IMG/VR virus record: IMGVR_UViG_3300037852_000247
Location: 1 to 64,000 of that record
Direction: 5' to 3' (one strand)
From: a virus
Lineage: Duplodnaviria > Heunggongvirae > Uroviricota > Caudoviricetes
Length of the DNA: 64,000 nucleotides
Part shown: positions 6,621 to 60,367 of the stretch, piece by piece
How positions within the stretch are numbered: the first letter of the stretch is position 1
Layout: each line of letters starts with the position of its first letter
Notes under the pieces: generated by a model
Databases searched by the model: none
What the model saw: the letters and a program-made list of their open reading frames with translations, nothing else
What the model was told of the DNA's origin: nothing
Program-made: the position numbers and the translations under genes

Positions 6621-6873
6621 GCGCGCCCTGCCCGCAGGTATGACCCCGCGCCTTCTGTCGCGCGAGGCCGCAGCGACCTATTGCGGGATTTCGCCCAACC
6701 ATTTTGATGAACACCTCGCCGAGGCGGTCCCGCCGGTCTTCATTGGTCGCCGGAGGCTTTGGGACGTCAAGGCGCTAGACCGCTGGCTTGATGCGCAATC
6801 GGGCCTCGCCCACTCTGTCGATTCTAGGTCGATGGAGGAGAGGCTCAATGGAGATCAAGGTGCGCGGCGTTAA
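6613..6873 (+). CDS. AlpA/excisionase-like HTH protein
   Basis: REAAATYCGISPNHFDEHL...PVFIGRRRLWDVKALDRWLD, typical of AlpA/Xis-type DNA-binding proteins. Sits immediately upstream of int. Confidence 0.6.
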   Translation: MAERALPAGMTPRLLSREAAATYCGISPNHFDEHLAEAVPPVFIGRRRLWDVKALDRWLDAQSGLAHSVDSRSMEERLNGDQGARR

Positions 6874-8014
6874 AGTCTATCGCAGCCGCGGGAAGGTTTA
6901 TGCCTATCACCGCAAGACGGGTAAGCGCATTCGCGCGCCGTTCGGGACTGCGGTATTCCTGGCCGAGGTCGAGCGGCTCAATGGCGCCCAACCGGTCGCT
7001 CCCAGCCCCGGCTCATTGGGCGGGCTCATTGCTGCGTATCGGCGGTCGCCGGAGTTCCTTGAGCTGGCCCCGCGGACCCGGTCCGACTACCAGAAGGTGT
7101 TCGACTACCTGCGACCGCTCGACGGCGATGCGCTGTTCGAGATCACGTCGGCCTATGTGATCGACGTCCGCGACGCGGCGTTCCGGTCGCACAAGCGACG
7201 GTTCGCGAATTACGTGCTCGCGGTACTGCGGCTGCTCCTCAAATGGGGCGCAGTGCGCGATCTGGTCGAGACAAACCAAGCTGCCGCGGTGCCGAAGCTG
7301 CGGCGGCCGCGGAACATGGCCCCCGCTAACCGGCCGTGGACGGATGCCGAATATGAAGCCGTTATCTCAGCCGCTTCCGGTGGCATCAAAATCGCCATCG
7401 CTCTCGGTCGCTTCACGGGCATTCCGGAGGGCGACATGGTCCGGTTGCCGAGATCCGCCTACGACGGCAATTGGATAAGCTGGCGCCGCGGCAAGACCGG
7501 CAACCCGGTCGACCTGCCGGCGCATCCCGAACTCAAGGCGATCCTCGACGAACGAAAAATTTTAGAGATCCCTGACCCCGCCATGCCGGGAGCTAGCCTG
7601 ATTTTAGATCGAGGCGATGCGGAACCGGATGCACCCCGTAGCTCAACGGAAGAGCGCTCGTCGACCGAGACGAGAGATGGGGGTTCAAATCCCCCCGGGT
7701 TTGCGCCAATCGAGGCGATGACGATCGTCGCCGGTGTGAAGGGTCGGCCGTACACCGAGAGCGGCTTCCGCGCGGGTTTCTTCAAGCTGATCAAATCGCT
7801 GCGTGAGCAGGGTCTCGTGGGGCCGCGCCTGACATTCCAGGGACTCCGCACCACCGCCGCCACGGCGCTCGCCGAGGCCGGGTGCAGCACGCAGACGATC
7901 ATGTCCGTTACCGGGCACAGCACCGAGGCGATGGTGGCCCACTATACCAGGCAAGCCAACCGGAAAAACCAAGCCGTTGCTGCGGTCGAGAAACTGAGGC
8001 CGAGGAAGACATGA
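6848..8014 (+). CDS. int: Tyrosine integrase (phage integrase family) with in-frame insertion
   Basis: GGAGGAG RBS precedes the ATG at 6848. The N-terminal arm-type domain is MEIKVRGVKVYRSRGKVYAYHRKTGKRIRAPFG. Box II and the catalytic Tyr are FQGLRTTAATALAEAG...IMSVTGHSTEAMVAHYTR. About 50 extra residues (7565-7720) sit between the box I region and the downstream conserved block. Confidence 0.85.
   Translation: MEIKVRGVKVYRSRGKVYAYHRKTGKRIRAPFGTAVFLAEVERLNGAQPVAPSPGSLGGLIAAYRRSPEFLELAPRTRSDYQKVFDYLRPLDGDALFEITSAYVIDVRDAAFRSHKRRFANYVLAVLRLLLKWGAVRDLVETNQAAAVPKLRRPRNMAPANRPWTDAEYEAVISAASGGIKIAIALGRFTGIPEGDMVRLPRSAYDGNWISWRRGKTGNPVDLPAHPELKAILDERKILEIPDPAMPGASLILDRGDAEPDAPRSSTEERSSTETRDGGSNPPGFAPIEAMTIVAGVKGRPYTESGFRAGFFKLIKSLREQGLVGPRLTFQGLRTTAATALAEAGCSTQTIMSVTGHSTEAMVAHYTRQANRKNQAVAAVEKLRPRKT
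7620..7708 (+). other. tRNA-like element embedded in frame in int, flanked by 12-bp direct repeats
   Basis: GTAGCTCAACGGAAGAGCG is a D-arm consensus and GGGGGTTCAAATCCCCC is a T-arm. The anticodon-like stem is CTCGTC/GACGAG with a 6-nt loop. The element ends in GCGCCA. ATCGAGGCGATG occurs at 7608-7619 and again at 7709-7720. Confidence 0.45.
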
Positions 8015-8621: not shown

Positions 8622-9170
8622 GTGCTAAGCCTTGCTCCATGCTCGCTCGAAGAGGCGAATGCGTTCGTGGCATTGCATCATCGACACCATCACCCGACGC
8701 CAGTAGCCAAATTTTCGATCATGGCCGTCTATGGTGGCCGCGCTGTTGGCGTGGTGATTGTCGGGATGCCGAAGGCGAGAATGGCTATGGATGGCTGGAC
8801 GCTTGAAGTGACGCGGTTAGCCACCGATGGCACTCGCAACGCCTGTTCGTTCCTCCTAGGGGCCGCTCGTCGGGCGGCGTTTGCGATCGGCTACAGTCGA
8901 ATACTTACTTACACGCTGTCGGAAGAGGGCGGCGCTAGCTTGCGCGCAGCAGGATTCCGTGGAGAGGCGACGATCCGAGGCGAATCGTGGATGCGGCGCT
9001 CTGAATACGGCGGACGCTTTAGTGACGACCGGAATCCGATCGGAGACAAGACGCGATGGAGCGCTGGCGTCAAGTGCGAGTTGCGTCCGCCGCGAATTTC
9101 GACTGGTGAACCGTCTCGGCAAGCGTCTTTGCCGCTGGAAGTGTCTAGCGGCATAGTCACAGGTGTCTAA
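8622..9170 (+). CDS. GNAT-like acetyltransferase-fold protein (tentative)
   Basis: LLGAARRAAFAIGYSRILTYTLSEEGGASLRAAGF resembles the GNAT motif A (R-x-x-G-x-A ... LY..GF). The HHRHHHP segment is unusual. Confidence 0.3.
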   Translation: MLSLAPCSLEEANAFVALHHRHHHPTPVAKFSIMAVYGGRAVGVVIVGMPKARMAMDGWTLEVTRLATDGTRNACSFLLGAARRAAFAIGYSRILTYTLSEEGGASLRAAGFRGEATIRGESWMRRSEYGGRFSDDRNPIGDKTRWSAGVKCELRPPRISTGEPSRQASLPLEVSSGIVTGV

Positions 9171-9348
9171 CGCATGATGGCGCGCTATCCTAACCCATTG
9201 AAATCGCGTCCGTACGGACCGGCATTGCGCCGCAGAAAAACGGACCACCAGTCGGCTGCTCCACGTTGTAATTTCAATAGGCCTTATCCGCAAAAGCGTC
9301 TAACGCGCTCTATTGCGACCCGCGGAGTTCTGCCAAGGGGGCGCGGTG

Positions 9349-10239
9349 ATGTCTAGCGCAAAACCGCTCGCGATCGACCTCTATTGCGGCCTTGGTGGTT
9401 GGGCCGAAGGCCTGCTCGCAGAGGGCTTCGATGTCATCGGATTCGATATCGAGCGGCATCGGTACCCAGCGCGCGATCTGTCGGCTTCCGATGGAACGAA
9501 GATCAGGCAGAGTGGAGTAGACTTCAACCATCCGCGGGTCGGGAGCAGCGCGAACCGATCATTCAATTATGCGAACGAGCGTGCGGTCCGCGATGCGCCG
9601 CTGACCGGTGGATGGATCGAGTATCCCGGCCATCTCGTCATACAGGACGTGCGCACGCTGCGCGGCTCTCAGTTCAAGGACGCGGCGCTGATCGTCGCAT
9701 CGCCGCCATGCCAAGCGTACAGCTATCGGGCAATGCCGTGGAAGCGAGCAAAGGCGTTGCCGCCACCTGACAACACGCTTTTCGAGACATGCTTCCGCAT
9801 TCAGCGCGAGGCGTCGGGGGCATCCGGACATCACGTCCCCCTAATTGTCGAGAATGTTCGCGGCGCGCAGCCATTTGTCGGTCGCGCACGGTGGAATTTT
9901 GGATCGTTCTACCTCTGGGGAGACGTGCCAGCTTTGATGCCGATCACATTCAAAGGCCAGAAACTCCCTGGCTTCCGGTTCGACGGCAGCGGTCGATCGT
10001 TTCAATCCGAGTCTGTCACGAGAAAGAACAACGGCGTATGGACAAATCCCGATGAGGATGCTGGCATCAAGCATCAGGAATCTGGCCACGCATGGTATCG
10101 CACAGGGCACGGCCAGCTGCCGTCCTCATCCTCGCGGCGCAAAGCCGCAAGCGCCATGATCGCCAAGATACCGCAACCGCTCAGCCGGCATATTGCAGCG
10201 GTCTTTCGCACACCGCCAGCGGGGCGCGGCGATGCCTAG
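9349..10239 (+). CDS. DNA (cytosine-5)-methyltransferase
   Basis: Motif I LYCGLGGW, motif IV PPCQAYS, ENV motif. The start at 9349 lies inside a copy of the junction motif. The protein C-terminus ends PPAGRGDA like the downstream cassette proteins. Confidence 0.8.
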   Translation: MSSAKPLAIDLYCGLGGWAEGLLAEGFDVIGFDIERHRYPARDLSASDGTKIRQSGVDFNHPRVGSSANRSFNYANERAVRDAPLTGGWIEYPGHLVIQDVRTLRGSQFKDAALIVASPPCQAYSYRAMPWKRAKALPPPDNTLFETCFRIQREASGASGHHVPLIVENVRGAQPFVGRARWNFGSFYLWGDVPALMPITFKGQKLPGFRFDGSGRSFQSESVTRKNNGVWTNPDEDAGIKHQESGHAWYRTGHGQLPSSSSRRKAASAMIAKIPQPLSRHIAAVFRTPPAGRGDA

Positions 10240-10429
10240 AGATTTGACGGATTTCCACTTCCTGCTTACGGGCTGCAATGACGAGCAGGCCGACGGCGAA
10301 ATAGACCTGGAGGAGTTTCAATTGGTCTTTCTTCCCCACCTCAAGCAGATACGGATCAATCTGACAGGCGAGCAGGTTGCGCAACTTCAGAAATGGCCGT
10401 CAGCGATGAGCCGGCGCGGCGAAGCCTAG
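10229..10429 (+). CDS. Cassette protein with EF-hand-like loop
   Basis: MPRDLTDFHFLLTGCNDEQADGEIDLEEF..., where DEQADGEIDLEE fits D-x-x-x-D-G-x-I-x-x-x-E. Ends in a degenerate junction motif (RRGEA). Confidence 0.4.
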   Translation, partial: AMPRDLTDFHFLLTGCNDEQADGEIDLEEFQLVFLPHLKQIRINLTGEQVAQLQKWPSAMSRRGEA

Positions 10430-10450
10430 CGTTTTGCGAAGGATAGGCGG

Positions 10451-10672
10451 ATGAACACACTCTATTGCTCGTTCTGCGGGAAGGCCGAACACGAGGTGTT
10501 CTATATCGTAGAGGCACCGGTGCGACAGGGGATTTGCGACGAGTGCGTGGTGCTGGCCAGCGACATAATCCAAACTCAACGCGCCAAGGTTGCGCGCGGC
10601 GAGCCAGTTCGCCGTCATTACCGCACACTTGCGGAGTTTCGCGCCTCGCCAGCGGGGCGCGGCGATGCCTAG
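10451..10672 (+). CDS. Standalone ClpX-type C4 zinc-finger protein
   Basis: MNTLYCSFCGKAEHEVFYIVEAPVRQGICDECVVLASDIIQ matches the ClpX N-terminal zinc-binding domain (LYCSFCGK...ICDECV). Ends ...SPAGRGDA. Confidence 0.65.
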   Translation: MNTLYCSFCGKAEHEVFYIVEAPVRQGICDECVVLASDIIQTQRAKVARGEPVRRHYRTLAEFRASPAGRGDA

Positions 10673-10841
10673 CGAGCGCGATCACCTTCACTGCAGTGAG
10701 ATGTGCGAACACCCGCAACCATTCTGTGTCGGCGAACTCATTCTGTGCGGGCTTTGTTTTTACTTCCGAGATCGAATCACGCCGATGGTGGAGTGCTCTC
10801 GGGATTATTGCGGTGAGCCAGCGGGGCGCGGCGATGCCTAA
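10665..10841 (+). CDS. Cassette Cys-rich small protein
   Basis: MPSERDHLHCSEMCEHPQPFCVGELILCGLCFYF...CSRDYCGEPAGRGDA, 58 aa. Confidence 0.45.
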   Translation: MPSERDHLHCSEMCEHPQPFCVGELILCGLCFYFRDRITPMVECSRDYCGEPAGRGDA

Positions 10842-11007
10842 AGATCGCTGGGTGATCGAGTTAATTCTGGACGATCCAGAGGAGGCGCGTCTGGCGTATG
10901 ACGCGATCGAAAAGCTGCTTGTTGAGATGGGCGAGATCGGGACGCTTTGGTTCTATCGCCGGACTCGCAACCCGCTCCCACCGCTAGCGGAGCGCGGCGA
11001 TGCCTAA
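10838..11007 (+). CDS. Cassette small protein
   Basis: MPKDRWVIELILDDPEEARLAYDAIEKLL...PLAERGDA. Confidence 0.4.
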
Positions 11008-11266
11008 GCACAAAAGTTACGGCTGCTACGAAAAAACGGCGCGAGTGTTGGTCAAAGAATTTTTGACGGCTCGGTTTCCCGGAGACGCCTCTTGGCGTGA
11101 AATGATGGCCGAAATAAAGGAACGGAAATTGACGCAAATTTCGGTCGACGACGCTCTCCTGACATTATCGGCTAGTAAGGAGGCGGAAATTGTCGATAGC
11201 CAAGCAAAATTCAAACGTGATTGGCGCTGGCGCGCAATACCGCCAGCGGGGCGCGGCGATGCGTAG
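11000..11266 (+). CDS. Cassette small protein
   Basis: MPKHKSYGCYEKTARVLVKEFL...PPAGRGDA, 88 aa. Confidence 0.45.
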   Translation: MPKHKSYGCYEKTARVLVKEFLTARFPGDASWREMMAEIKERKLTQISVDDALLTLSASKEAEIVDSQAKFKRDWRWRAIPPAGRGDA

Positions 11267-11489
11267 CGTTTCACAGGCTACCGGCGTGCCGTGCATCTAT
11301 CCTGCACCTTCTGATCGAGGAAAGCCGTACATCGTGAGGGTTATGATCAACAAGAAACTCTACACGGTAGGGACCTTTGTCACAGTCGAGGACGCCGTTG
11401 TGGCTCTCGCGGAGTTCCGTCTCGCTAATCCTCGACCAGCGATCCGGCGCAGTCCCGTTACTGGAAGATATGAGCGAATCTATGACTGA
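11259..11489 (+). CDS. Cassette AP2-like DNA-binding protein
   Basis: GKPYIVRVMINKKLYTVGTFVTVEDAVVALAEFRLAN resembles an AP2/integrase-type DNA-binding domain. Confidence 0.45.
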   Translation: MRSVSQATGVPCIYPAPSDRGKPYIVRVMINKKLYTVGTFVTVEDAVVALAEFRLANPRPAIRRSPVTGRYERIYD

Positions 11490-11505
11490 CCAGAGGGGCG
11501 CGGCG

Positions 11506-11742
11506 ATGCCTAGCCCACCGGACGGGAAGGAGATCTGGGCACAACCTGAGCCATCAGACGCTATGGTCTGGGCAATTTGCCCCTACATCACTCGCCGCAA
11601 TCTCGAACTTTGCAACCGCTGCCCGAAGTGGGAATGGGACGCTCGTGGTGAATCGGACGTCCAACGCGGCTGCTACGGAATGGCCGCTGAGGCCTGTCGG
11701 ATCGTTTTTGCGATGCAGCGGCGAGAGGTGCACGGTGTGTGA
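11506..11742 (+). CDS. Cassette Cys-containing small protein
   Basis: MPSPPDGKEIWAQPEP...CPYITRRNLELCNRCPKWEW..., 78 aa. Confidence 0.4.
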   Translation: MPSPPDGKEIWAQPEPSDAMVWAICPYITRRNLELCNRCPKWEWDARGESDVQRGCYGMAAEACRIVFAMQRREVHGV

Positions 11743-11759
11743 ACAAGCGGGGCGCGGCG

Positions 11760-12011
11760 ATGCCTAATGCTTTGAAAGAAGCGGATACTCTACTGCCAGA
11801 CGATCTGGCGGACTGGGTCTCAAAACTATCCGAAGTATTGACGCCGCTTGATTGGGCAGAACAAGCCTTAGATTATGCCCAAGTAAAGCATAGCCGACGG
11901 CCCTTCTTACGCCCACACCTAGCGCGGGCTATTACTGAGGCACAAGAGGCCGCCGTGAAAAGGGCATCACGTCCTAAACCGGAACCGCCAGCGGAGCGCG
12001 GCGATGCCTAG
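11760..12011 (+). CDS. Cassette small protein
   Basis: MPNALKEADTLLPDDLADW...PPAERGDA. Confidence 0.45.
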   Translation: MPNALKEADTLLPDDLADWVSKLSEVLTPLDWAEQALDYAQVKHSRRPFLRPHLARAITEAQEAAVKRASRPKPEPPAERGDA

Positions 12012-12189
12012 CGATGCGCTGATCACTGCCGAGGCTACCGAACGCCTTGCGCGTCTGCGCGCCGGGATGGTGGACGAGATTTCGCGGCAACAGAAAATGC
12101 TGAACGCCCTTCGCGCAAGACTATCGGGCGTGGATGCCGTGATTTCGGTAGTGGAGTGTGTACCGCCAGCGGAGCGCGGCGATGCCTAG
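12004..12189 (+). CDS. Cassette small coiled-coil protein
   Basis: MPSDALITAEATERLARLRAG...PPAERGDA. Its 3' 70 bp (12105-12175) are duplicated at 12366-12435. Confidence 0.45.
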   Translation: MPSDALITAEATERLARLRAGMVDEISRQQKMLNALRARLSGVDAVISVVECVPPAERGDA

Positions 12190-12400
12190 CGCAAAACGGC
12201 GGCGACCGCCAATCGTCAAACCGGTGGCCGCTGCATCGAAATATCCCTGCACGCAATGCGGAGGGGATGCTCTTGTTGGCTTTGTCGCGAATAAGCCTGG
12301 AGATTGGTACGGCAAGATCAATGTCGGCGAAAGGCTTTGTACTGGTTGCTTCGTGAGGCTAGCGCCCTTCGCGCAAGACTATTGGGCGTGGATGCCGTGA
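12182..12400 (+). CDS. Cassette Cys-rich zinc-ribbon-like protein
   Basis: MPSAKRRRPPIVKP...YPCTQCGGD...CTGCFVRLAP. Followed by the duplicated 3' fragment of the previous cassette. Confidence 0.4.
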   Translation: MPSAKRRRPPIVKPVAAASKYPCTQCGGDALVGFVANKPGDWYGKINVGERLCTGCFVRLAPFAQDYWAWMP

Positions 12401-12439
12401 TTTCGGTAGTGGAGTGTGTACCGCCAGCGGGGCGCGGCG

Positions 12440-12628
12440 ATGCCTAGCGTAAAAACGCGCGAGCAGGCTCGCATTCGGATGGAGAGATTCTATGCAAAGC
12501 GAGCAATTCACCGTGGCGTGCGCTGCTACGTATGTATGAAGCCCACTCACGGCTATTTCCGCTGTCTGAGTTGCCGCCGAAAGCTCAACTCGCGGCGTAT
12601 GGATAAGAAGGGGCGCGGCGATGGATAG
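12440..12628 (+). CDS. Cassette Cys-rich small protein
   Basis: MPSVKTREQARIRMERFYAKR...CYVCMKPTHGYFRCLSCRRK...KKGRGDG. Confidence 0.4.
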   Translation: MPSVKTREQARIRMERFYAKRAIHRGVRCYVCMKPTHGYFRCLSCRRKLNSRRMDKKGRGDG

Positions 12629-12839
12629 CGATGAGATCAGCTTCGACCCGCCGTTGCCCCTGCCTCTCGACGAGACGGCCGGGCGGCTATTTGATCGGCT
12701 GTGTCGGGCTCACGCAGCCCTGCTTAAAGCCCAAGCTGCGCTCAACCCGTTGTCCGGGTTTTTGCGGAAACGGCCGCCGAAAATGGAGCGCTATCTCGAA
12801 AGCGTGAGGCAAGAAATTCGGGAGGCTATGCGTGACTGA
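12621..12839 (+). CDS. Cassette small protein
   Basis: MDSDEISFDPPLPLPLDETAGRLFDRLCRAHAALLK... Confidence 0.4.
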   Translation: MDSDEISFDPPLPLPLDETAGRLFDRLCRAHAALLKAQAALNPLSGFLRKRPPKMERYLESVRQEIREAMRD

Positions 12840-12877
12840 AACATTGCCTGACCATACGACAGCAGCGGGGCGCGGCG

Positions 12878-13069
12878 ATGGCTAGGTCAGGAATCCACCG
12901 TCATGTCTGGGACGAAGTGTCGTATGGCGCGCAGGGGTGGTTTTTTTGCCCCTACTGCAAGGCGGTGCGCGCGCCTTCCGGGAGGATATTTCATGAGAGC
13001 AAGACCATCCGTGAGATTGACGGCGTAACCATCAATGACAATCCGCTAGCGGGGCGCGGCGATGCCTAG
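12878..13069 (+). CDS. Cassette Cys-containing small protein
   Basis: MARSGIHRHVWDEVSYGAQGWFFCPYCKAVRAP...PLAGRGDA. Confidence 0.4.
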   Translation: MARSGIHRHVWDEVSYGAQGWFFCPYCKAVRAPSGRIFHESKTIREIDGVTINDNPLAGRGDA

Positions 13070-13102
13070 CGATTTAAGCCAATCACACTGAGGGGGAAAG
13101 AA

Positions 13103-13744
13103 ATGCCGAGAGGTGCTGAATTTTCGATCAAGGCCGACTACGCCCAGCTGGTCTCGCCATTCGCGTCAAACGACAAGACGCGGTGGAATCTGAACGGCTT
13201 CTACGTCCAACGGCACCCGTCGGGCGGTGCGGTGATCGTTGCCACCGACGGCCGATCTCTGGCCGTCTTCTACGACCAGTTCGGCGAGGTCAAGGCGCCC
13301 GCCATCGTCCGCCTTCACAAAACCACCCTGGCGGCGTGCGCTGAGGATTGCACGCTGGTGCTGACCGGCGATCGCGCCGGCGTCTACCAGATGTGGAACA
13401 AGGAGACCGGCGAGGGCATCCTCGTTGCGGGACAGGATCAAGCCGTTATCGAGGGCGACTTCCCGGATTGGCGCTTGCTGATCCCACCGGTTCCGGCCGA
13501 GACCGTACCAGCGACATTCGCGTTCACCGAACTGAAGAAGTTCGACAAGGTCAGGCAGTTCGGTTCCAAAATCGCGGCGCTACGTATCTTAGCTGAGTCA
13601 TCAAGTGGGCCCGCCATCGTTCTGACCAAGCGCGACGATTTCCTCGGCGTGATCATGCCAGTCCCCGGCATCGCCGACGAAAACCGGATGCCGCATTGGA
13701 TGCCGCGGCCGAACGTGGGGCCGTCGGCAGCGGCGGCGGAATGA
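13103..13744 (+). CDS. DNA polymerase III beta-clamp-like single-domain protein
   Basis: KTRWNLNGFYVQRHPSGGAVIVATDGRSLAV resembles the DnaN motifs TRYYLNG...ATDGHRLA. GAGGGGGAAAG RBS upstream. Confidence 0.45.
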   Translation: MPRGAEFSIKADYAQLVSPFASNDKTRWNLNGFYVQRHPSGGAVIVATDGRSLAVFYDQFGEVKAPAIVRLHKTTLAACAEDCTLVLTGDRAGVYQMWNKETGEGILVAGQDQAVIEGDFPDWRLLIPPVPAETVPATFAFTELKKFDKVRQFGSKIAALRILAESSSGPAIVLTKRDDFLGVIMPVPGIADENRMPHWMPRPNVGPSAAAAE

Positions 13745-14151
13745 CATTCTACCCCATCACGCCAATGGCCGCACCTAGACTCACGAATCGGGATCGCTGG
13801 AAGAAGCGTCCCGTAGTGCTGGAATATTTCGCGTTCCGTGACGAGGTCGCAGCTAGGCGCGTCTCGCTGCCGATACCATCGAAAATCATCTTCTGGATGC
13901 CAATACCACCGTCCTGGTCCAAGAAGAAACAGCGAGACGCTGATTCCGCTCCTCATGAGCAGACGCCGGATATTGACAACCTCCTAAAGGCTCTCATGGA
14001 GGCAGTCTTCCGCGACAAGGACGCGATCGTCTGGTCTGTGTGGCCCGAGAAGCGATGGAGTAGCAAGCCCGGGATCGAGGTTCTCCCGATCATGACCTCT
14101 TCGCTTACGACCGCCACGCTCGCCGACGTGTGGCCGGGGGTACCGCTATGA
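13741..14151 (+). CDS. rusA: RusA-family Holliday junction resolvase
   Basis: APRLTNRDRWKKRP...PPSWSKKK...PHEQTPDIDNLLKALMEAVF...DAIVW matches RusA family signatures. Confidence 0.7.
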   Translation: MTFYPITPMAAPRLTNRDRWKKRPVVLEYFAFRDEVAARRVSLPIPSKIIFWMPIPPSWSKKKQRDADSAPHEQTPDIDNLLKALMEAVFRDKDAIVWSVWPEKRWSSKPGIEVLPIMTSSLTTATLADVWPGVPL

Positions 14152-14990: not shown

Positions 14991-15809
14991 ATGATGGAAG
15001 AGAGCGATCTTAAAATCCGGCGGGTCGATTGGTATTTCGACGAGTGGCTTGCCGGCACCGCTAGACTCGATGCCGTAGAACGCGGCGTCTATGTGACCAT
15101 CTGCAATCTGATTTACAGTCATGGAGGGCCCATCGAGAGCGAGGGGTTGGCAAGCCTTTGTGGGTGTCATGGGAACAGCTTTCGGAGGGCAATGGACCGA
15201 CTGAAAAAGCTCGGGAAAATCATCGAAAACGGTTCGGAAATCAGCGTTAAACGCTGCGGAAAAGAGATTGAAAAGGCTAGGATTCGCCTCGGAAAAGCCA
15301 AAGAAAACGGTCGGAAAAGCGGTGGTCGCCCTAATAAAATCAATGGTGTAGCAAAACCGCCGGGTTATTGCCAAGAAAAGCTCCCGGGCGCGTCCTTCAA
15401 CCTACAACCACCAACCTATAAAGATTCAGAAGCTAACGCTTCTGCCGCCGCTGACGCGACGGCGGAGACGCGCGACCCGGTCAAAATCTTGTGGAGCAGA
15501 GGCTTGGCGCTCTTGCTCGGTGCGCAATGCACGGGTGCACGAGCGAGACGGACGATCGGCCTTTGGCGGAAGGAATTCGGTGATGCGGCTGCAATGGCCG
15601 CCATCGTTGCTTGTGAGCAGGAAGCAGCGAGTGACCCGGTGTCGTTTATCGCTGGATGTCTTCAAAACTCTCGGAAAGGAGCGAACGGATATGGACGACG
15701 AAATCTTGCGGACGACAGGATGCGAGCTGGTCTCCAGGCCATCATTGATGCCGATCGAGAGGAAGATCTCCTCAGCAGAGAAGGCCTTAATGGCCGCTAC
15801 GACGCGTGA
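14991..15809 (+). CDS. DUF1376 (YdaU-like) replication-associated protein
   Basis: The N-terminal block VDWYFDEWLAGTARLDAVERGVYVTICNLIYSHGGPI is characteristic of the DUF1376 family found next to prophage replication genes. Confidence 0.6.
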   Translation: MMEESDLKIRRVDWYFDEWLAGTARLDAVERGVYVTICNLIYSHGGPIESEGLASLCGCHGNSFRRAMDRLKKLGKIIENGSEISVKRCGKEIEKARIRLGKAKENGRKSGGRPNKINGVAKPPGYCQEKLPGASFNLQPPTYKDSEANASAAADATAETRDPVKILWSRGLALLLGAQCTGARARRTIGLWRKEFGDAAAMAAIVACEQEAASDPVSFIAGCLQNSRKGANGYGRRNLADDRMRAGLQAIIDADREEDLLSREGLNGRYDA

Positions 15810-16281
15810 AATCAGACATGCGCTGGCCCCCATATTGGCGCTGAATCTGGCTAATCCGCCACCCGATTGGGGTTTGGCACAGCCCATTTACGTGGAGATC
15901 CTCAAGGATCTTCCGATTGATCTCATTCAGGCCGCGGTAATGAATCACATTTCCACTTCTGAATGGTTCCCAAAGCCGGCTCAGATCAGAGCGCTCGCAA
16001 TCGAGCGTCTCGATCATCGGCGCGCAGAACTTAGTTACTGGCGAGAGCAAAAAGAGGAAGCGACGCAGCCGACCGCATTGCAGCCGACTGACGAAGACCT
16101 GGAGACCGTGGATGCGCTCATGAGCGCAGAGTTTGGCGATCGACGCAGCGCGGAGCGGCGCGAGAGACCACTGCCGGCGGAAGTGACCGAGGCCGTTAAG
16201 CGGGCGGCGAAAGCGCTGAAAACTTTCCGCTTGCCTGACGAGGATAATCCTGTGGTGCAGGAATGGCTGCGCCAAATGTAA
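15791..16281 (+). CDS. Hypothetical replication-module protein
   Basis: MAATTREIRHALAP... start overlaps the stop of the previous gene. Confidence 0.4.
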
Positions 16282-20198: not shown

Positions 20199-20888
20199 AT
20201 GCTAGAGCCCGGCTCACACAATTCACCGCTGGAAATATGCCCGCTGCCGAAAACGCGCGTCGCGCTTCGCAGGTCGCTTGCATTGAAGTCGAAGCGCCGC
20301 GGGTCTAAACGTAAAGCGGGGCCGCGGTACCCCAACGGACAACTTCGGCATCGCCATGCGGTTGAGGACCCGGGCAGGCCGACCCCTCAGCGATTCCGGC
20401 ATGGCGCCGTCGCCAGACTCGAGAAGCCCATAGCCGACGACGACGGCAGGCCAGTGCGGCCATATCGCGCCGCCAGCTTTCTTTCTGAACTCGAGGCCGC
20501 CGGCCTTATCGACCCCAGGACCGGCAAGCCGATCGACAAGAAGACATGGGCGGAGATGCGCGCCACCGCCGAAGACTTCCGCGCACAGTTCTACAAGGCA
20601 AAATTAGACCGGCTGGGCGCCGCCCAATTGGTGCGCAGCGCCCACTCGACCGGAACAGCCCTGCCGCCTCCCCGCGTCGAGGACGCGCGCGTATCCGTGT
20701 GGCGATCGATCTGCGCGGTCGGCGGCCTCGCGTCGCTGGGTGGTTCGTGCCTGTGGCACGTCATCGGCTTCGAATGCGATTTGGCCAGCTGGGCGCCACC
20801 AGGATGGATCGGACGCGGGATCACCGTCTCGGAGGCCCAGGACATTTTGATTTCAACCCTGGCCACGCTGACGGAGCACCATCGATGA
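20199..20888 (+). CDS. Hypothetical protein
   Basis: 229-aa ORF with a basic N-terminus. Confidence 0.4.
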   Translation: MLEPGSHNSPLEICPLPKTRVALRRSLALKSKRRGSKRKAGPRYPNGQLRHRHAVEDPGRPTPQRFRHGAVARLEKPIADDDGRPVRPYRAASFLSELEAAGLIDPRTGKPIDKKTWAEMRATAEDFRAQFYKAKLDRLGAAQLVRSAHSTGTALPPPRVEDARVSVWRSICAVGGLASLGGSCLWHVIGFECDLASWAPPGWIGRGITVSEAQDILISTLATLTEHHR

Positions 20889-21895
20889 TTCAGTCCATCT
20901 GCCTGCTGGGATCTTTCCGGGTTTGCGCGGATCCATCGGTCACGATCCCGAAGAAAGGCAAGGCGCTGCTGGCATTGCTGGCGATAGCCGCGCTTGACGG
21001 CGATGGGATGAGCCGGCACCAGCTGGCGAAGATGCTGTGGCCTTACCTGGATTACCACCAGGCCCGCCACCGCCTGCGCCACTGCCTAATGGAGTTGCGC
21101 AAGGAGATGCGCGCGGAGGCCGTCAAAACTCTCATCACTGATTTAGTCGATTGCCGCGCCGATGTATCAACGGACGTCGCCGATTTTGCGCGGCTGGAGA
21201 AATCCAACAACCAGCATGACCTCGAACTGGCCGCGAATCTCTACCGCGGCGATATGCTGGGTGATTTATGGATCAAGTCGGAGCCGTTCCGCGAGTGGCT
21301 CACTCTCGAGCAGGAGATGTGGCGGGTGCGGGCGATGAAGGTGCTGGTGCGGCTTTCCGGAATTGCCCGTGACAATGCCGATCACCCTGTCGCGATTGCC
21401 GCCGCCCGACGCCTAGTGCAGATCGACCCGCTCAACGAGGACAACCAGCGGCTATTGATCGTGACCCTCGATACCGCCGGACAGCACGGCGAAGCGAAGC
21501 GACAATATCGCCGCTGCCGCAAGACGCTCAAGGAGGAATTGGGCATCGATCCCGACCCCGAAACGAGAGACCTCGCCGAGCGGCTGTTTACCGTCAAGAA
21601 TATTCAGCAGGCCAAGCCCGTCGAGATGATTTGGGCGGTCGAACGGGCGGAGGAGATTCGCGATAATCTGGACCACAGTGCCAGCCTAGTCGAAGCCTTG
21701 CGCATCGACCGCGAAGTGATGGCGAAAGTGCTGTCGCACCTGGAACAGATCATCGACACGAAGCATGTCGGCATGAAGTCGCTCGAACGGATGCGCGACG
21801 CGATCAAACACCGTTTGGGGGACGAGCATCTCGCCACCGCGCCCCGGCATCGCCCGCAATCAAACGGCGAGGTGGGCGTCGAGGTGAGGGCCTAA
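20885..21895 (+). CDS. SARP-family transcriptional activator (winged-helix + BTAD)
   Basis: LLGSFRVCADPSVTIPKKGKALLALLAIAALDGDGMSRHQLAKMLW is an OmpR-type winged helix. LYRGDMLGDLWIKSEPFREWLTLEQEMWRVRAMKVLVRL is BTAD-like. Confidence 0.6.
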   Translation: MIQSICLLGSFRVCADPSVTIPKKGKALLALLAIAALDGDGMSRHQLAKMLWPYLDYHQARHRLRHCLMELRKEMRAEAVKTLITDLVDCRADVSTDVADFARLEKSNNQHDLELAANLYRGDMLGDLWIKSEPFREWLTLEQEMWRVRAMKVLVRLSGIARDNADHPVAIAAARRLVQIDPLNEDNQRLLIVTLDTAGQHGEAKRQYRRCRKTLKEELGIDPDPETRDLAERLFTVKNIQQAKPVEMIWAVERAEEIRDNLDHSASLVEALRIDREVMAKVLSHLEQIIDTKHVGMKSLERMRDAIKHRLGDEHLATAPRHRPQSNGEVGVEVRA

Positions 21896-22473: not shown

Positions 22474-23556
22474 ATGGCGACTTTGCCGGTGCCGCTGACC
22501 AGATGGGAAATCAGCCGGGAAATCGGCAAATCGGCCGATCTCGGCCGAACGGCGGCCGAATTCGCGCGGCACTCGCGCGCGCCGGCGACCGAGAGCGCTT
22601 ACGCCTCGGATTGGGCCGATTTTTCCTTCTGGTGCGAGTCCGCCGGGCTCATCCCGCTGCCGGCCGCGCCGGTGACGATCGGCGCTTATCTCTCAGATCG
22701 CTCGGGCATCCTCAAGGTCTCCACCCTCAATCGCCGGCTGGCGGCGATCACCGCAATGCATCGGCTCGGCGGTCATGGCCTCGATGGCAAGCACCCCGCG
22801 ATTGCGTTGGTGCTGGCCGGCATCCGGCGGACCTATGGCACCCGGCAGGTTGCGAAGCGGGCGCTGCTGACCGAGGACCTCCGGCGCATCGTTCGAAAGC
22901 TGCGGGTCGAGCGGCCTGGCGGCTGCCGCGATCGCGCGGTGCTGTTGGTCGCCTTTGGTGCTGCGCTGCGCCGCTCCGAGCTGATCGCGCTCGACCGCGA
23001 CGACATCACCATCACCCAGGCTGGCCTGACGATCCTGGTGCGCCGGTCGAAAACCGACCAGGAAGGGCAAGGCCGCGAGATCGGGATTCCGCGGTCGCGT
23101 AAATCGACGACCTGTCCGGTGGCGGCGCTCGAAGCCTGGCTGGAGTTGACTGGGGGGGGCGGAAAATCCCCCCAGTCGGAAACCCCGGAATTTTCCGGTG
23201 AACGAATCATCAACGGGAAACCTCCGAATGAAACCTCCGACACCGGGAAATCTTCCGGAGGTTTCCCGACACCGCTCTTCACCCGGGTCGACCACGGCAG
23301 GATTACCGCCGACCGGCTGACCGGCCGGGCTGTCGCGGAGATCGTCAAGCGGGCCGCAAAGCGGGTCGGCATCGACCCCTCGAAGGTCGCCGGGCACAGT
23401 CTGCGCAGCGGCTTCGCCACCAGCGCCGCACGCGGCGGAGCGAGCCTCGCCGACATCATGGCCCAGACCGGGCACAAAAATAGCGATGTTGCGATGCGGT
23501 ATGTGCAGCGCGGCAAAATCCTGCAGAACCCCGCCTCGAAGGCTGTTCGGCTATGA
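22474..23556 (+). CDS. Second tyrosine recombinase/integrase with in-frame structured insertion
   Basis: N-terminal SAM-like domain ESAYASDWADFSFWCESAGL. Box I ALRRSELIALDRDDI. Box II and catalytic Tyr HSLRSGFATSAARGG...GHKNSDVAMRYVQ. About 39 extra residues are encoded by 23150-23270. Confidence 0.8.
   Translation: MATLPVPLTRWEISREIGKSADLGRTAAEFARHSRAPATESAYASDWADFSFWCESAGLIPLPAAPVTIGAYLSDRSGILKVSTLNRRLAAITAMHRLGGHGLDGKHPAIALVLAGIRRTYGTRQVAKRALLTEDLRRIVRKLRVERPGGCRDRAVLLVAFGAALRRSELIALDRDDITITQAGLTILVRRSKTDQEGQGREIGIPRSRKSTTCPVAALEAWLELTGGGGKSPQSETPEFSGERIINGKPPNETSDTGKSSGGFPTPLFTRVDHGRITADRLTGRAVAEIVKRAAKRVGIDPSKVAGHSLRSGFATSAARGGASLADIMAQTGHKNSDVAMRYVQRGKILQNPASKAVRL
23150..23270 (+). repeat. 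Hairpin-rich element embedded in frame in the second integrase
   Basis: GGGGGGGGCGGAAAATCCCCCC hairpin and CCGGAATTTTCCGG hairpin. Perfect 12-bp inverted repeat GGGAAACCTCCG (23215-23226) / CGGAGGTTTCCC (23256-23267). Internal direct repeat GAAACCTCCGA x2. Confidence 0.55.
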
Positions 23557-24778: not shown

Positions 24779-26173
24779 ATGGCGCGAGGCGGAGCGCGGG
24801 TTGGAGCGGGTCGGAAGGCCCAAAAAAGGCCCAACACTTCCCCCGTGTCGCGCGCCCGCGCGCCCGCGCGCGAGTCGGACGGAAATCAAAGGCCGTGGCC
24901 GGCCGACAAGGTCGAGCGATGGTTGATCGATCGGTTGATCCCATACGCTCGAAATGCTCGCACTCATAGCGACGAGCAGGTAGCGCAGATCGCGACCTCG
25001 ATCCGCGAATTTGGCTTCACCAACCCGGTGCTCGTTGACGAAGCGGGTACGCTGATCGCCGGGCATGGCCGTGTGCTCGGGGCGCACCAGCTTGGCATTA
25101 CCGATGTGCCGACGATGGTGGCGCGCGGGTGGACGCCGGCGCAAATCCAGGCTTACCGGCTCGCCGACAACAAGCTGGCGCTCAACGCCGGGTGGGACCC
25201 GGAATTGCTTCGGCTTGAGCTCGGAGAGCTGAAGCTCGGCGGCTTTGATTTATCGCTGACCGGGTTTGGCGAGCTCGAACTCAAAGACATCATGGCCGAG
25301 CGGACCGAGGGGCTTACCGACCCCGACGACACGCCCGCGGTGCCCGAGCATCCGGTCTCGGTGGCGGGCGATTTGTGGATCCTCGGGCGGCATCGTCTCC
25401 TCTGCGGCGACAGCACGGTCGCGACGGACGTTGAGCGCGTGCTCGGCGGCGTCGAGCCGCACCTGATGGTCACCGACCCGCCTTATGGGCTCAATTACGA
25501 CGCTAATTGGCGGAACGAGGTTGAGAAGCTCAACTTTCGGACGCGCGGAACTTCCGCCACCGGGCCAGTGCTTAACGACGACAGGTCTGACTGGACCGAA
25601 GCGTGGGCTCTATTCCCTGGAGAAGTTACGTATGTTTGGTGCGCCTCGCTCCAGTGTCCCGCTGTTGCCGCGCATCTTAGACAATGTGGATTTGAACCTC
25701 GCAATTTGATCATATGGGCAAAAAGCAGCCTCGTGGTCAGCCGCGGCCACTATCATCCGCAGCACGAAACCTGCTGGTATTCGGTTCGCAAAGGCAAAAC
25801 AGGACATTGGACGGGCGATCGAAAACAATCGACGCTTTGGCAAATCGTCAAGTCAAATAAGCTGGAGACCGGGCACTCGACGCAAAAGCCGGTCGAGTGC
25901 ATGCGCCGGCCGATCGAGAATAACTCCTCATCCGGCCAGGCGGTCTATGAGCCTTTCTGTGGTAGTGGGACAACGATAATCGCGGCCGCGATGACCGGCC
26001 GCGCTTGCCACGCTATCGAACTCAGCCCGCAATATGTCGACGTCGGCGTCAAGCGCTGGCAGGACTTCACGGGCGAGGCCGCGGTGCTAGAGGGCGACGG
26101 CCGCACCTTCGACCAGATCGCCGCTGAGCGGCAGCCTCAAGCGGCTACGTCCGAGGCTGCAGATGCCGCGTGA
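24779..26173 (+). CDS. ParB-like nuclease domain fused to DNA methyltransferase (N6/N4 type)
   Basis: ParB-N domain RLIPYARNARTHSDEQVAQIATSIREFGFTNPVLVD...GHGRV. Methyltransferase motif IV DPPY and motif I FCGSGTT. The first ~22 nt (ATGGCGCGAGGCGGAGCGCG) are identical to the start of terS at 27608. Confidence 0.8.
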   Translation: MARGGARVGAGRKAQKRPNTSPVSRARAPARESDGNQRPWPADKVERWLIDRLIPYARNARTHSDEQVAQIATSIREFGFTNPVLVDEAGTLIAGHGRVLGAHQLGITDVPTMVARGWTPAQIQAYRLADNKLALNAGWDPELLRLELGELKLGGFDLSLTGFGELELKDIMAERTEGLTDPDDTPAVPEHPVSVAGDLWILGRHRLLCGDSTVATDVERVLGGVEPHLMVTDPPYGLNYDANWRNEVEKLNFRTRGTSATGPVLNDDRSDWTEAWALFPGEVTYVWCASLQCPAVAAHLRQCGFEPRNLIIWAKSSLVVSRGHYHPQHETCWYSVRKGKTGHWTGDRKQSTLWQIVKSNKLETGHSTQKPVECMRRPIENNSSSGQAVYEPFCGSGTTIIAAAMTGRACHAIELSPQYVDVGVKRWQDFTGEAAVLEGDGRTFDQIAAERQPQAATSEAADAA

Positions 26174-27607: not shown

Positions 27608-28171
27608 ATGGCGCGAGGCGGAGCGCGATCCGGTGCTGGGCGCCCAAAGCAATCGGCTACCCCGAAAGCTGGCGCGCCGAGAGGCGGAGCGCGGGAAGGC
27701 GCGGGCCGGCCAATGAGCAAGAAATTCGCGCCCACAGCCGACCAACGCGGCAATGTCGAGGCAATGAGCGGCTTCGGTATTTCCCAGGAAGAAATCTGCC
27801 GAGTGATCATCAATCCCGAAACCGGCAAGCCGATCGACAGGAAGACCCTGGAGCTGCATTTCTCCGACGAGATCGAAACCGGCTACATCAAAGCCAATGC
27901 CACAGTCGGCCGCATAGCCTACGCCACGATCACCGCCGCCCCCGGCGGCATCCCAGACAACCACGGCCGCGTCGAGCTCACCAAATTTTGGCTGGCCAGG
28001 CGAATGGGTTGGAAAGAGACCAACGTGCACGAGCACAAAAGCGAGATTGACAGTGCTTCCTCAGCTCGAGAAGTTGTCACGGGCCTCATCGCTCGCCTCT
28101 CTTCTGCCCGAAGAGCAGGCAGCGGTAATAGCTCAGATGACGGATCGGGAACTGGAGGAACTCCGGTATGA
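27608..28171 (+). CDS. terS: Terminase small subunit (P27-like)
   Basis: The MARGGARSGAGRPK N-terminal motif is typical of P27-family small terminases. Sits immediately upstream of terL. Confidence 0.65.
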   Translation: MARGGARSGAGRPKQSATPKAGAPRGGAREGAGRPMSKKFAPTADQRGNVEAMSGFGISQEEICRVIINPETGKPIDRKTLELHFSDEIETGYIKANATVGRIAYATITAAPGGIPDNHGRVELTKFWLARRMGWKETNVHEHKSEIDSASSAREVVTGLIARLSSARRAGSGNSSDDGSGTGGTPV

Positions 28172-37384: not shown

Positions 37385-38146
37385 GTGGCCCAAGTTTGGT
37401 CCGCTACGCACATCAACTCACATTTGAGTGGGGGCGGTACCATCACGGTCACGATGGGCGCGACGAATACGAGTTGTGCCGGTTTTGGATCCGAAGGGGT
37501 TACCGTAGGTAAATTCTACTGGGAAACGTCCGTTACGTCGTCTTCATTTGCCAATAACTGCATTCAGGGCATAGGCAACACGGGATCATCGGCTGCTGAC
37601 TTCCAATACATTGGTGTAGGACCAGATACTTGTGGAGTGTTCGGTACTGGTACAGCAAGTGACTTCTATTATAATGCCGGTCTCGTATGGGCATCTAGTA
37701 CATTTGTAGTGGTGTCAGGCGACAGAATAGGACACGCTCTTGATTTGGTGAACGGTCTATATTGGATTGAGGATATTACTTTGGCAAGCGGGTGGTATGG
37801 GTCGTCTGGGAGCGTTACCGGCAATCCAGCGACCCAAAACAACGGATTCGTTCTGTTATCAGGAATTACGGCTAATCCGGTCGTTCCAGCTCTTTCTTTA
37901 AAGAACAGTGGCGATGTCGGAAATGGGTATTTTCTCCCAGCCTTATGGCTGGGGACGCCGCCCAGCGGGTTTGTAGCGCTTTCCCACCCGGTCTTTTTGG
38001 ATTCTGGCGTCGGATGCGATCAGTCGTTGGCCGTGCGCAGCGGCAATGAGCGGCGGCGCACGATGTGGACAGCGTCATTTCTAACAGATGAATCTACCGG
38101 CAATGTTCTGACCGATGAATCTACCGGCAACCGATTGACGCAATAA
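37385..38146 (+). CDS. Hypothetical structural protein (low-GC)
   Basis: 253 aa. Ends LAVRSGNERRRTMWTASFLTDESTGNVLTDESTGNRLTQ, with the same 3' motif and a terminal 8-aa tandem repeat. Confidence 0.45.
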   Translation: MAQVWSATHINSHLSGGGTITVTMGATNTSCAGFGSEGVTVGKFYWETSVTSSSFANNCIQGIGNTGSSAADFQYIGVGPDTCGVFGTGTASDFYYNAGLVWASSTFVVVSGDRIGHALDLVNGLYWIEDITLASGWYGSSGSVTGNPATQNNGFVLLSGITANPVVPALSLKNSGDVGNGYFLPALWLGTPPSGFVALSHPVFLDSGVGCDQSLAVRSGNERRRTMWTASFLTDESTGNVLTDESTGNRLTQ

Positions 38147-57354: not shown

Positions 57355-57407
57355 TCCCCAAACACAATGCCGGTCTGGCCGGTGGCAACAACAACGAGCG
57401 TGCATTG

Positions 57408-59746: not shown

Positions 59747-59747
59747 G

Positions 59748-60359: not shown

Positions 60360-60367
60360 ACTCGTTC

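Follow-up and report, generated by a model that had tools for sequence, protein, structure and literature searches.

In T4-type phages, promoter-early stem-loop (PeSL) elements, each consisting of a sigma-70 promoter and a terminator stem-loop, make every gene its own transcription unit, and it was shown experimentally that recombination between these regulatory cassettes shuffles small open reading frames (ORFs) (Arbiol et al. 2010, PMC2839356; Comeau et al. 2014, PMC4122927). In Cluster K mycobacteriophages, start-associated sequences (SAS) of the type GGGATAGGAGCCC, featuring a canonical AGGAG, were described 3-7 bp before start codons (Pope et al. 2011, PMC3203893). Within this study, a motif that belongs with such repeated regulatory junctions organizing the accessory-gene regions of phages was analyzed. 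It was observed within positions 1 to 64,000 of the IMG/VR virus record IMGVR_UViG_3300037852_000247 (Caudoviricetes), a stretch of 64,000 nucleotides that is referred to as the window and forms part of a phage genome on a contig of 93.7 kb. The phage in question is an uncultured temperate phage.

The motif is a start-associated element originating from the leader of the early operon, and its overlap with the stop codon of the preceding gene is frequent (24 of 30 junctions) yet dispensable. An earlier interpretation of the window, referred to as the original prediction, had described it primarily as a stop/start junction, an emphasis that has to be shifted to the start. As judged from related loci, the junction appears to mark an array of swappable gene cassettes. 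A portable translation-start and coupling junction, derived from the leader and serving in addition as the source of homology for gain, loss and shuffling of cassettes, is the explanation preferred here, with modest confidence. The architecture is clean, rare and previously undescribed; it extends known principles and breaks none.

Anatomy of the motif and the gene array

Screening of the window for GGGCGCGGCGATGCCTA with up to three mismatches revealed 15 occurrences, compared to 0.95 expected from shuffled sequences. All copies are located on the + strand at positions 9339-13068 (search string; the full 24-bp extents cover 9335-13071), the distance between successive copies is 166-883 bp, and the rest of the 64 kb contains none. 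The fifteen copies reported originally are accordingly real, and the suspicion that the motif might be generic to all gene junctions of this genome was not borne out. Since the array region is identical in the JGI contig and in two Logan assemblies, it does not represent an assembly artefact. Furthermore, the same motif array was found in five further independent sources. The features of the leader and the array are listed below; L240 denotes a related contig that lacks cassettes.

9171..9334, + strand: non-coding leader of the early rightward operon, aligned to the integrase-to-clamp-gene intergenic region of L240; no gene is called by JGI
9335..9358, + strand: motif copy 1 (AAGGGGGCGCGGTGATGTCTAGCG), 3' end of the leader, orthologous to the single L240 site; ATG 9349 starts the methyltransferase gene
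9349..10239, + strand: gene 1, C5 DNA methyltransferase (Pfam), 296 aa, with the motif-encoded tail PPAGRGDA
10218..10241, + strand: motif copy 2; ATG 10232 starts cassette 10232-10429 (65 aa)
10408..10431, + strand: motif copy 3, decayed, AAG for ATG; ClpX zinc-finger gene 10451-10672 downstream
10651..10674, + strand: motif copy 4; ATG 10665 starts the Cys-rich cassette 10665-10841 (58 aa)
10820..10843, + strand: motif copy 5; ATG 10834 starts cassette 10834-11007 (57 aa)
10986..11009, + strand: motif copy 6; ATG 11000 starts cassette 11000-11266 (88 aa)
11245..11268, + strand: motif copy 7; ATG 11259 starts cassette 11259-11489 (76 aa), which has its own TGA before the next motif
11492..11515, + strand: motif copy 8; ATG 11506 starts the Cys-rich cassette 11506-11742 (78 aa)
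11746..11769, + strand: motif copy 9; ATG 11760 starts cassette 11760-12011 (83 aa)
11990..12013, + strand: motif copy 10; ATG 12004 starts cassette 12004-12189 (61 aa)
12105..12196, + strand: direct repeat of 92 bp, first copy, comprising the 3' part of cassette 12004-12189 plus motif
12168..12191, + strand: motif copy 11; ATG 12182 starts the zinc-ribbon-like cassette 12182-12400 (72 aa)
12363..12454, + strand: direct repeat of 92 bp, second copy, 96.7% identical to 12105-12196
12426..12449, + strand: motif copy 12; ATG 12440 starts the zinc-ribbon cassette 12440-12628 (62 aa)
12607..12630, + strand: motif copy 13; ATG 12621 starts cassette 12621-12839 (72 aa), which has its own TGA
12864..12887, + strand: motif copy 14; ATG 12878 starts cassette 12878-13069 (63 aa)
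13048..13071, + strand: motif copy 15, the last one; ATG 13062 opens the mini-ORF 13062-13091, and the downstream sequence ATTTAA..CTGAGGGGG is orthologous to L240
13103..13744, + strand: clamp-like gene, 213 aa, the first conserved gene past the array, with its own strong ribosome-binding site

On the ORF map, the array comprises 14 consecutive genes, as had been predicted, namely the C5 methyltransferase gene and 13 ORFs of 57-88 aa. Among the functional labels assigned originally, C5 methyltransferase (Pfam E 7e-6) and ClpX zinc finger (10451-10672; Pfam E 4e-12) were retained. The EF-hand label failed the cut-off (Pfam E 0.067), and the 'AP2-like' label of cassette 11259-11489 is based solely on a partial match to a PHROG family of HNH endonucleases (E 7e-6). 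Of the 13 small cassettes, eleven did not match any entry in Pfam or PHROGs, and comparison of the cassettes with each other revealed no paralogy except for the motif-encoded tails. The host-takeover or anti-defense role suggested originally for the gene set is accordingly hypothetical. The cassettes feature a coding-like composition with G+C contents of 0.62, 0.45 and 0.61 at the first, second and third codon positions, respectively, the latter value compared to 0.72-0.82 for the core genes of the phage.

Two readings of each motif copy had been proposed, one as the end of the upstream gene and one as the start of the downstream gene. Within the window, the ATG of the motif is the start codon of the next ORF in 13 of 15 copies, and TAG or TAA, five bases past the ATG, closes the upstream ORF at 10 of 14 junctions, generating the tail ..AGRGDA with the overlap geometry ATGNCTAG. 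The double reading does not extend to the four upstream ORFs that stop ahead of the motif (at 11489, 11742, 12400 and 12839), where the motif is intact, to copy 3, or to the final copy, which opens just a mini-ORF of nine codons. Across all contigs, ATGNCTAG, ATGNCTAA or ATGACTGA occur at the 24 junctions with overlap, and the remaining upstream ORFs end 13-40 nt earlier. Fusion of adjacent cassettes by a +1 frameshift at GCC-TAG was considered and rejected, the tRNA being unable to re-pair.

Copy 3 (10408-10431) carries two more core changes in addition to AAG and is the only copy with an unused ATG; the ClpX-finger gene downstream of it uses its own ribosome-binding site and the ATG at 10451 and has a native N-terminus. 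The motif is intact before first genes that lack an upstream ORF, as observed for the copy at position 635 of contig L218, for window copy 1 and for copy 1 of contig L244. Since the motif is kept where the upstream ORF stops earlier or is missing and the copy with the unused ATG decayed, the element is tied to the start of the downstream gene.

In order to describe the conserved part, the alignment of copies suggested originally was extended to 32 copies from six independent contigs (window, L105, L145, L218, L243 and L244). The invariant part comprises 17 nt, AGCGGGGCGCGGCGATG, covering positions -14 to +3 with 1.5-2.0 bits each, and its register to the ATG is constant in 32 of 32 copies. The flanks CCGCC (positions -19 to -15) and NCTAGCG are conserved only in part; position +4 is free, and positions +5 to +8 (CTAG) are conserved. 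Third-codon positions of both reading frames are as invariant as all others, i.e., wobble relaxation is missing, and eight of the 32 copies are untranslated as a tail and still intact. The conserved entity is therefore a nucleic acid and not a peptide, as the original prediction had stated. The core is constrained at the nucleotide level, far above the local background; the adjacent 213-aa gene features just 73-82% nucleotide identity among the same phages.

These results bear directly on an explanation in which a peptide is selected, that is, a shared C-terminal tag PPAGRGDA and/or an N-terminus MPS representing, e.g., a degradation, sorting or processing signal. The motif-encoded tail ends 24 of 30 cassette proteins, and 28 of 32 copies feature NCT as codon 2 after the motif ATG, encoding Pro, Ser, Ala or Thr. 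Small second residues such as these permit removal of the initiator methionine. Invariant wobble positions in the tail frame and eight intact copies outside of any tail are not expected for a selected peptide; moreover, six cassettes lack the tail, and substitutions within it alter the amino acid (GRGDA, ERGDA, GRGDG, GRGDV, GRSDG, GRGDD). Peptide selection is hence regarded as very improbable. Among the 120 methyltransferase homologues listed, the tail PPAGRGDA is present only in the window protein, the other 119 being devoid of it.

Related loci with empty, short and long arrays

The exact 19-mer of the motif had no match in IMG/VR and only nine single chance matches in the GTDB species genomes. 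A 17-mer from upstream of the ATG gave 14 single matches in GC-rich DNA of IMG/VR, none of them in an array, and a nucleotide search against 50,697 phage records gave no match. Scanning of metagenomes with the 17-mer uncovered at least two true arrays, L105 and L145, the prevalence thus representing a lower bound. Both are short contigs with four motif copies each (one interrupted by the contig end) and, apart from the related pair given below, with cassettes different from those of the window. A further 23-nt motif match, CGCCAGCGGGGCGCGGCGATGCG, was observed at positions 181-203 of L223 (IMGVR_UViG_3300021090_000133) within coding-like sequence, where it would encode ..SPAGRGDA..; based on the surrounding reading frame, the gene containing it is putatively a C5 methyltransferase gene. 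This match may be due to chance or may hint at the origin of the motif sequence.

Among 80 IMG/VR loci with relatives of the methyltransferase (43-66% identity), neither a comparable dispersed repeat nor cassette homologues were found, and closer methyltransferase relatives (65-76% identity) are likewise devoid of the motif. In a survey of dispersed 10-mers covering approximately 245 loci, the window (together with its own copies L010-L012) alone was far out, and the six copies of L243 ranked with coding repeats and GC-rich chance words. One of the listed methyltransferase homologues, P0019, starts with MPS. It is encoded on L218, where the motif is located before the methyltransferase gene and before the gene preceding it, the first copy following an intergenic region. 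An unrelated phage contig with a methyltransferase homologue, L235, contains ATGTCACCCTT five times at positions 11939-12052 with a spacing of approximately 21 nt (one of 38 nt) in or beside an HTH_36 gene; by its sequence arrangement, this set looks like replication-origin iterons.

Syntenic arrays were found by using the 213-aa clamp-like gene as an anchor, and its homologues gave the decisive series of loci:

L240/L241/L242: integrase gene, approximately 220 nt of intergenic DNA and the 213-aa gene; 0 cassettes
L244/L245: a single ORF of 80 aa, flanked on both sides by a 41-nt leader-end repeat; 1 cassette
L243: syntenic array; 7 cassettes
Window: syntenic array; 14 cassettes

Other relatives contain at least two or at least four cassettes. 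Hence, cassette content between the conserved junctions varies in relatives, the behavior for which the original prediction had proposed to search. Relatives of the 213-aa gene were not found in IMG/VR, either by single sequence or by profile. The gene itself (13103-13744) shows weak matches to DNA polymerase III beta-clamp/processivity factors of Pseudomonas phages (approximately 25-31% identity; PHROG 947) and no Pfam match, and PHROG 3007 labels the family 'RusA-like'. Downstream of the integrase gene of L243, a sequence similar to a tRNA T-arm (GGTTCGATTCC; positions 2240-2315) was noticed, for which ARAGORN makes no tRNA call; possibly, it represents an incomplete tRNA at attP, similar to the tRNA-like segment of the window described below.

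The L240 intergenic region aligns to positions 9160-9358 of the window leader. In this contig, the counterpart of the DNA preceding window copy 1 leads directly into ATTTAA..CTGAGGGGG..ATG, which follows copy 15 in the window, via one degenerate copy, GGGCGCGGTTAGGGAATGTCTAGCG. Since both flanks of the array are joined through a single copy, the motif corresponds to the 3' end of the leader and the array to an expansion at this site. As far as sequence alignment goes, derivation of the motif from the 3' end of the early-operon leader is shown. The leader region also contains direct repeats GTCTARCG (window 9143, 9165, 9300 and 9351; L240 3134, 3233 and 3286), the last of which falls on the 3' half of the motif (ATGTCTAGCG). 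In sequence, these repeats look like sites of DNA-binding proteins, i.e., operators or integrase arm-type sites.

Altogether, approximately 33 motif-bounded cassettes were found, only four pairs of which are related:

Window 9349 and L218 819: methyltransferases
Window 11506 and L145 8
Window 12440 and L243 4428 (last L243 cassette): 67% identical
L105 464 and L243 4124: partial

All shared cassettes have different neighbors in the two arrays. DNA alignments of the methyltransferase gene and of two shared cassettes revealed that homology runs from one motif to the next and that the sequences outside are unrelated. Furthermore, homologues of cassette 11506-11742 elsewhere are located in ordinary runs of small genes without the motif and feature a native N-terminus that is 10-14 aa longer, compared to the motif-bearing versions beginning with MPS... 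Likewise, as 24 of 30 upstream ORFs end at the motif stop, the motif-encoded tail replaces their own terminus. The duplication of a 3' cassette fragment noted originally is real and longer than stated, comprising 92 bp. The two repeat copies bracket the 166-bp body of cassette 12182-12400, which reads into the duplicated tail of the preceding cassette 12004-12189.

By analogy, the dynamics of the locus appear closest to those of the PeSL elements. In both cases, the small early genes of a hyperplastic region, most of them orphans, are each flanked by a short expression signal that is repeated. The repeats delimit the insertions, deletions and replacements that distinguish related phages, and they have been proposed as portable homology for modular shuffling. 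Unlike PeSL elements, the motif contains neither a promoter nor a stem-loop and represents a translation-start region within one operon. It also overlaps both coding frames, adds residues to the proteins and stems from one leader at one fixed locus. Moreover, the present phage is temperate, GC-rich and not related to T4.

The same series could be produced by an integron-like platform in which a recombinase inserts circular cassettes at the leader site and regenerates the motif on both sides. Empty, one-cassette and multi-cassette arrays among related phages would be expected in this case, as would the bracketing of single cassettes by the 41-nt repeat of L244 and the 92-bp repeat of the window, which is reminiscent of Campbell-type insertion. 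In addition, a tyrosine recombinase gene is always located 0.2-1.3 kb upstream, and the GTCTARCG repeats of the leader end at the insertion point. Integrons likewise feature a fixed platform by a tyrosine recombinase gene, co-oriented promoterless cassettes expressed from a single promoter region upstream of them, arrays that are empty, short or long depending on the relative, and a large, mostly orphan cassette pool; the present cassettes are co-oriented and without their own promoters, too. In contrast to integrons, an attC-like folded site is missing, and the junction lies 5' of each ORF and supplies its start codon. The neighboring integrases are of the ordinary phage type and co-oriented with the array instead of divergent. 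They fall into two very divergent groups, one represented by L243/L244 and the other by the window and L240, so that the window type is found next to an empty site as well. A dedicated IntI-type integrase was not recognized, as judged on the integrase groups and the empty site. Furthermore, the motif lacks paired inverted binding sites around a spacer of 6-8 bp, a possible 7-bp hairpin is missing in 20-30% of the copies without compensation, and upstream repeat boundaries range from 17 to 92 nt, fitting homologous rather than site-specific exchange. Given the missing attC fold and two divergent integrase groups, one of them beside an empty site, site-specific cassette exchange is unlikely, and the platform explanation is given a low probability. 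This also applies to the cassette-exchange recombination site considered originally, insofar as it would be site-specific.

Expression signals and possible function of the junction

Promoter-like sites were not detected in region 9171-13100; the surrounding 10 kb contain three, which equals the shuffle expectation. Terminator-like sites on the + strand inside the array were not found. Folding across the junctions, as suggested in the original prediction, yielded z-scores of -1.4 to +2.1 and a consensus fold of -2.2 kcal/mol with three pairs and no covariation, i.e., no conserved RNA fold. The 7-bp GC hairpin mentioned above would reach -9.6 kcal/mol; 170 of 200 shuffled sequences fold as well, and it is the 5' arm that is lost. 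Screening of the window against Rfam identified only a tRNA-like element elsewhere, and potential antisense partners of the motif in the 64 kb occurred at chance level. A sigma-54-like reading of the motif (GG-N10-GC), made by eye, was rejected, matching 5 of 12 consensus positions and placing the transcription start after the ATG.

For the preferred explanation, a translation-start and coupling junction derived from the leader, the following course is proposed. The element would correspond to the final 25-40 nt of the leader in copied form, with a ribosome-binding region of low strength followed by the ATG and one or two further codons. Copies of this leader end would have spread in front of every accessory gene between the leader and the clamp-like gene. 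The whole array is predicted to form one transcript from the promoter region of the leader, in line with the missing internal signals, and each cassette would be translated from its motif ATG. At approximately 80% of the junctions, the upstream ORF ends 5 nt past the ATG, a geometry that would suit termination and restart by ribosomes. Homologous recombination between copies, either within a genome or between co-infecting relatives, would delete, insert and reshuffle cassettes. As identical stretches of 17-31 nt (up to 41-92 nt in recent events) enclose every cassette, such an exchange would always rebuild a working start. In a captured gene, the original N-terminus and frequently also the stop codon would be lost, with MPS.. 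and ..PPAGRGDA taking their place. The comparisons described above show the anatomy, the leader origin, the series of 0, 1, 7 and 14 cassettes, the ending of homology at the motif and its conservation as a nucleotide sequence; initiation at the motif ATG, coupling and the route of recombination are inferred.

Ordinary translational coupling relies on overlapping stop and start codons between adjacent genes. The array shares with it the 8-nt overlap ATGNNTAG, the dense packing of small genes in an operon and the change by one frame at each junction, and the upstream stop overlaps or abuts the start at the 24 of 30 junctions given above. However, ordinary coupled junctions do not feature an identical context of 17-31 nt, and none is conserved across unrelated gene pairs and phages.

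Regarding anatomy, the likeness to SAS recognized by the original prediction is apt. SAS are asymmetric repeats in one orientation, present in 11-19 copies that are restricted to the non-structural genome part; they are located at start codons, are strongly associated with ATG and sometimes overlap the upstream stop. Their conservation exceeds the needs of rRNA pairing, and they precede genes of different families. Correspondingly, the 15 + strand copies of the window are confined to the early region, which precedes the terminase gene (28047), and contain the ATG. In contrast to SAS, the motif AGCGGGGCGCGGCGATG bears no resemblance to GGGATAGGAGCCC (two mismatches or fewer were allowed) and has a weak Shine-Dalgarno-like part. 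It includes the ATG and codon 2 in constant register, forms one contiguous array with 0 to 14 cassettes across relatives and lacks extended SAS-like inverted repeats. Membership of the phage in Cluster K was not supported either, considering the missing match among the 50,697 phage records and the identity of 52-58% to the nearest cultured terminases. Since sequence, spacing, host group and array organization differ, the motif is not a member of the SAS, in spite of their anatomy being the closest.

Alternatively, the motif could be a translational operator. A factor acting in trans, either a small RNA or an RNA-binding protein encoded by phage or host, would bind AGCGGGGCGCGGCGAUG on the mRNA and switch all cassettes together, comparable to what has been proposed for Cluster K SAS, or to T4 RegA and Mu Com. 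This explanation overlaps with the preferred one, factor binding being the selected function and shuffling a by-product. It is consistent with the 17 nt being invariant beyond the needs of a ribosome-binding site at weak anti-Shine-Dalgarno pairing, with a linear sequence devoid of a conserved fold, with the constant register to the ATG and with the anatomy shared by SAS; the array also encodes several small Cys-rich/zinc-finger proteins, which by their sequences are potential RNA binders. However, a candidate factor was not found, the antisense search stayed at chance level, the array-less relative L240 retains only a degenerate leader copy, and the function of SAS themselves was still untested in 2025. 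The operator is accordingly entertained as a possibility of rather low probability.

A DNA roadblock was considered as well, in which the immunity repressor binds an asymmetric site of 14-17 bp and silences the array in lysogens, as described for the stoperators of Cluster A phages (PMC9283540). The motif resembles stoperators in being an asymmetric site on the scale of their 13-mer (approximately 14-17 bp), present in many copies at gene junctions and in one orientation co-directional with transcription, and its first copy lies in the leader, a possible place for an operator. Stoperators differ from the motif in being distributed genome-wide at variable positions relative to start codons and in acting on DNA via the repressor. 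The motif copies are confined to 3.7 kb of accessory genes, with none in the rest of the operon or the 64 kb, and are locked to the ATG. This fixed register and the decay of the copy with the unused ATG are unexpected for a DNA-binding site; moreover, arrays with more cassettes have correspondingly more sites (0, 1, 7, 14). A roadblock function is thus hardly probable.

Several observations weigh against the translation-start and coupling junction preferred here. Pairing of the motif with the 3' tail of 16S rRNA amounts to -6.0 kcal/mol, a value equaled by 28% of random 20-mers (calculated for a generic tail), compared to -8 to -12 kcal/mol for stand-alone genes of this phage. A strong Shine-Dalgarno identity of the motif was rejected on account of this ordinary pairing. 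rRNA pairing leaves the invariance of the 14 nt upstream of the ATG without account, and since these 14 nt do not form a strong Shine-Dalgarno sequence, their reader is probably more specific than the anti-Shine-Dalgarno. Judged on the sequence pattern, this invariance suggests a specific RNA- or DNA-binding reader as a rival or complement to the model. Within-genome homogenization is not the cause of core constancy, since the similarity among the copies of one array does not exceed that between arrays (1.66 versus 1.09 core differences). Lengths of 17-31 nt are short for RecA-type recombination, and among the ORFs tested in the early region no phage recombinase was found, only RusA. Direct repeats should cause deletions, so that long arrays would need selection to persist. 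Finally, recombination accounts for the shuffling of cassettes already bearing the motif, not for the first motif pair of a foreign gene.

A bolder interpretation, to which only a minor share of confidence is assigned, takes the 17-mer as the recognition site of a dedicated machine. The locus would then be a gene-capture platform providing foreign ORFs with a standard start at the leader, or a translational regulon controlled by one factor. If true, it would have no described counterpart in phages and would combine integron-like population behavior with a 5' junction supplying the start codon.

Phage context and significance

Beyond the array, the following features of the window were annotated:

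6788-8014: integrase
8622-9170: Mom-like protein, 182 aa (PHROG 'Mom-like DNA modification protein', E 8e-29)
9171-9334: leader
9335-13071: array
13741-14151: RusA
14991-15809: primosomal/replication-initiation-type protein (DUF1376)
15790-16281: protein weakly matching a helicase loader
20546-21895: protein with a BTAD transcriptional-activator domain
22474-23556: second tyrosine integrase
24779-26173: ParB-methylase
28047-29567: terminase
31267-33042: portal

The best cultured relatives of the terminase belong to phages of Microcystis, Brevundimonas and Roseobacter. For the alphaproteobacterial prophage assumed originally, the Brevundimonas and Roseobacter phage terminases (approximately 52% identical) provide a weak hint. 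Three genes of the modification type were observed in this phage, encoding the Mom-like protein, the C5 methylase and the ParB-N6/N4 methylase (24779-26173). Within the integrase ORF 6788-8014, a tRNA-like sequence (7632-7703) scores 45 bits for the Rfam tRNA model; ARAGORN assigns a four-base anticodon to it, and the acceptor stem contains two mismatches. It sits in a 47-aa in-frame insertion relative to the closely similar L240 integrase, and the JGI caller predicts only the C-terminal 98 aa of the window integrase. A tRNA copy related to attP and a small mobile insertion are candidates for the nature of this segment. The second integrase (22474-23556) is encoded 9 kb downstream of the array and adjoins the BTAD-domain protein; a second integration system, a resolvase and an invertase are candidates for its role. 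In the structural region, a 2299-aa ORF (49124-56023) has no Pfam match at E <= 0.001, and the same applies to the large ORFs 38146-40149, 41172-43718 and 56020-61531.

The central proposal of the original prediction, a nucleic-acid element organizing exchangeable cassettes, turned out to be largely right. Small orphan early genes are abundant in phages and many of them encode host-takeover or anti-defense factors, and their acquisition, expression and exchange are poorly understood. The locus represents an unusually clean natural series of an empty site and arrays of one, seven and 14 cassettes, in which one portable start sequence delimits the cassettes and is predicted to express them. The idea of recombination driven by repeated regulatory signals, known for the promoter-terminator units of T4-type phages, is thereby extended to a translational signal and to temperate, GC-rich phages, and a second, independent example of start-associated sequences is provided. 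Furthermore, the 17-mer is usable as a probe to recover the cassette pool from metagenomes and, if it drives uniform coupled translation, may serve as a standard junction for synthetic operons.

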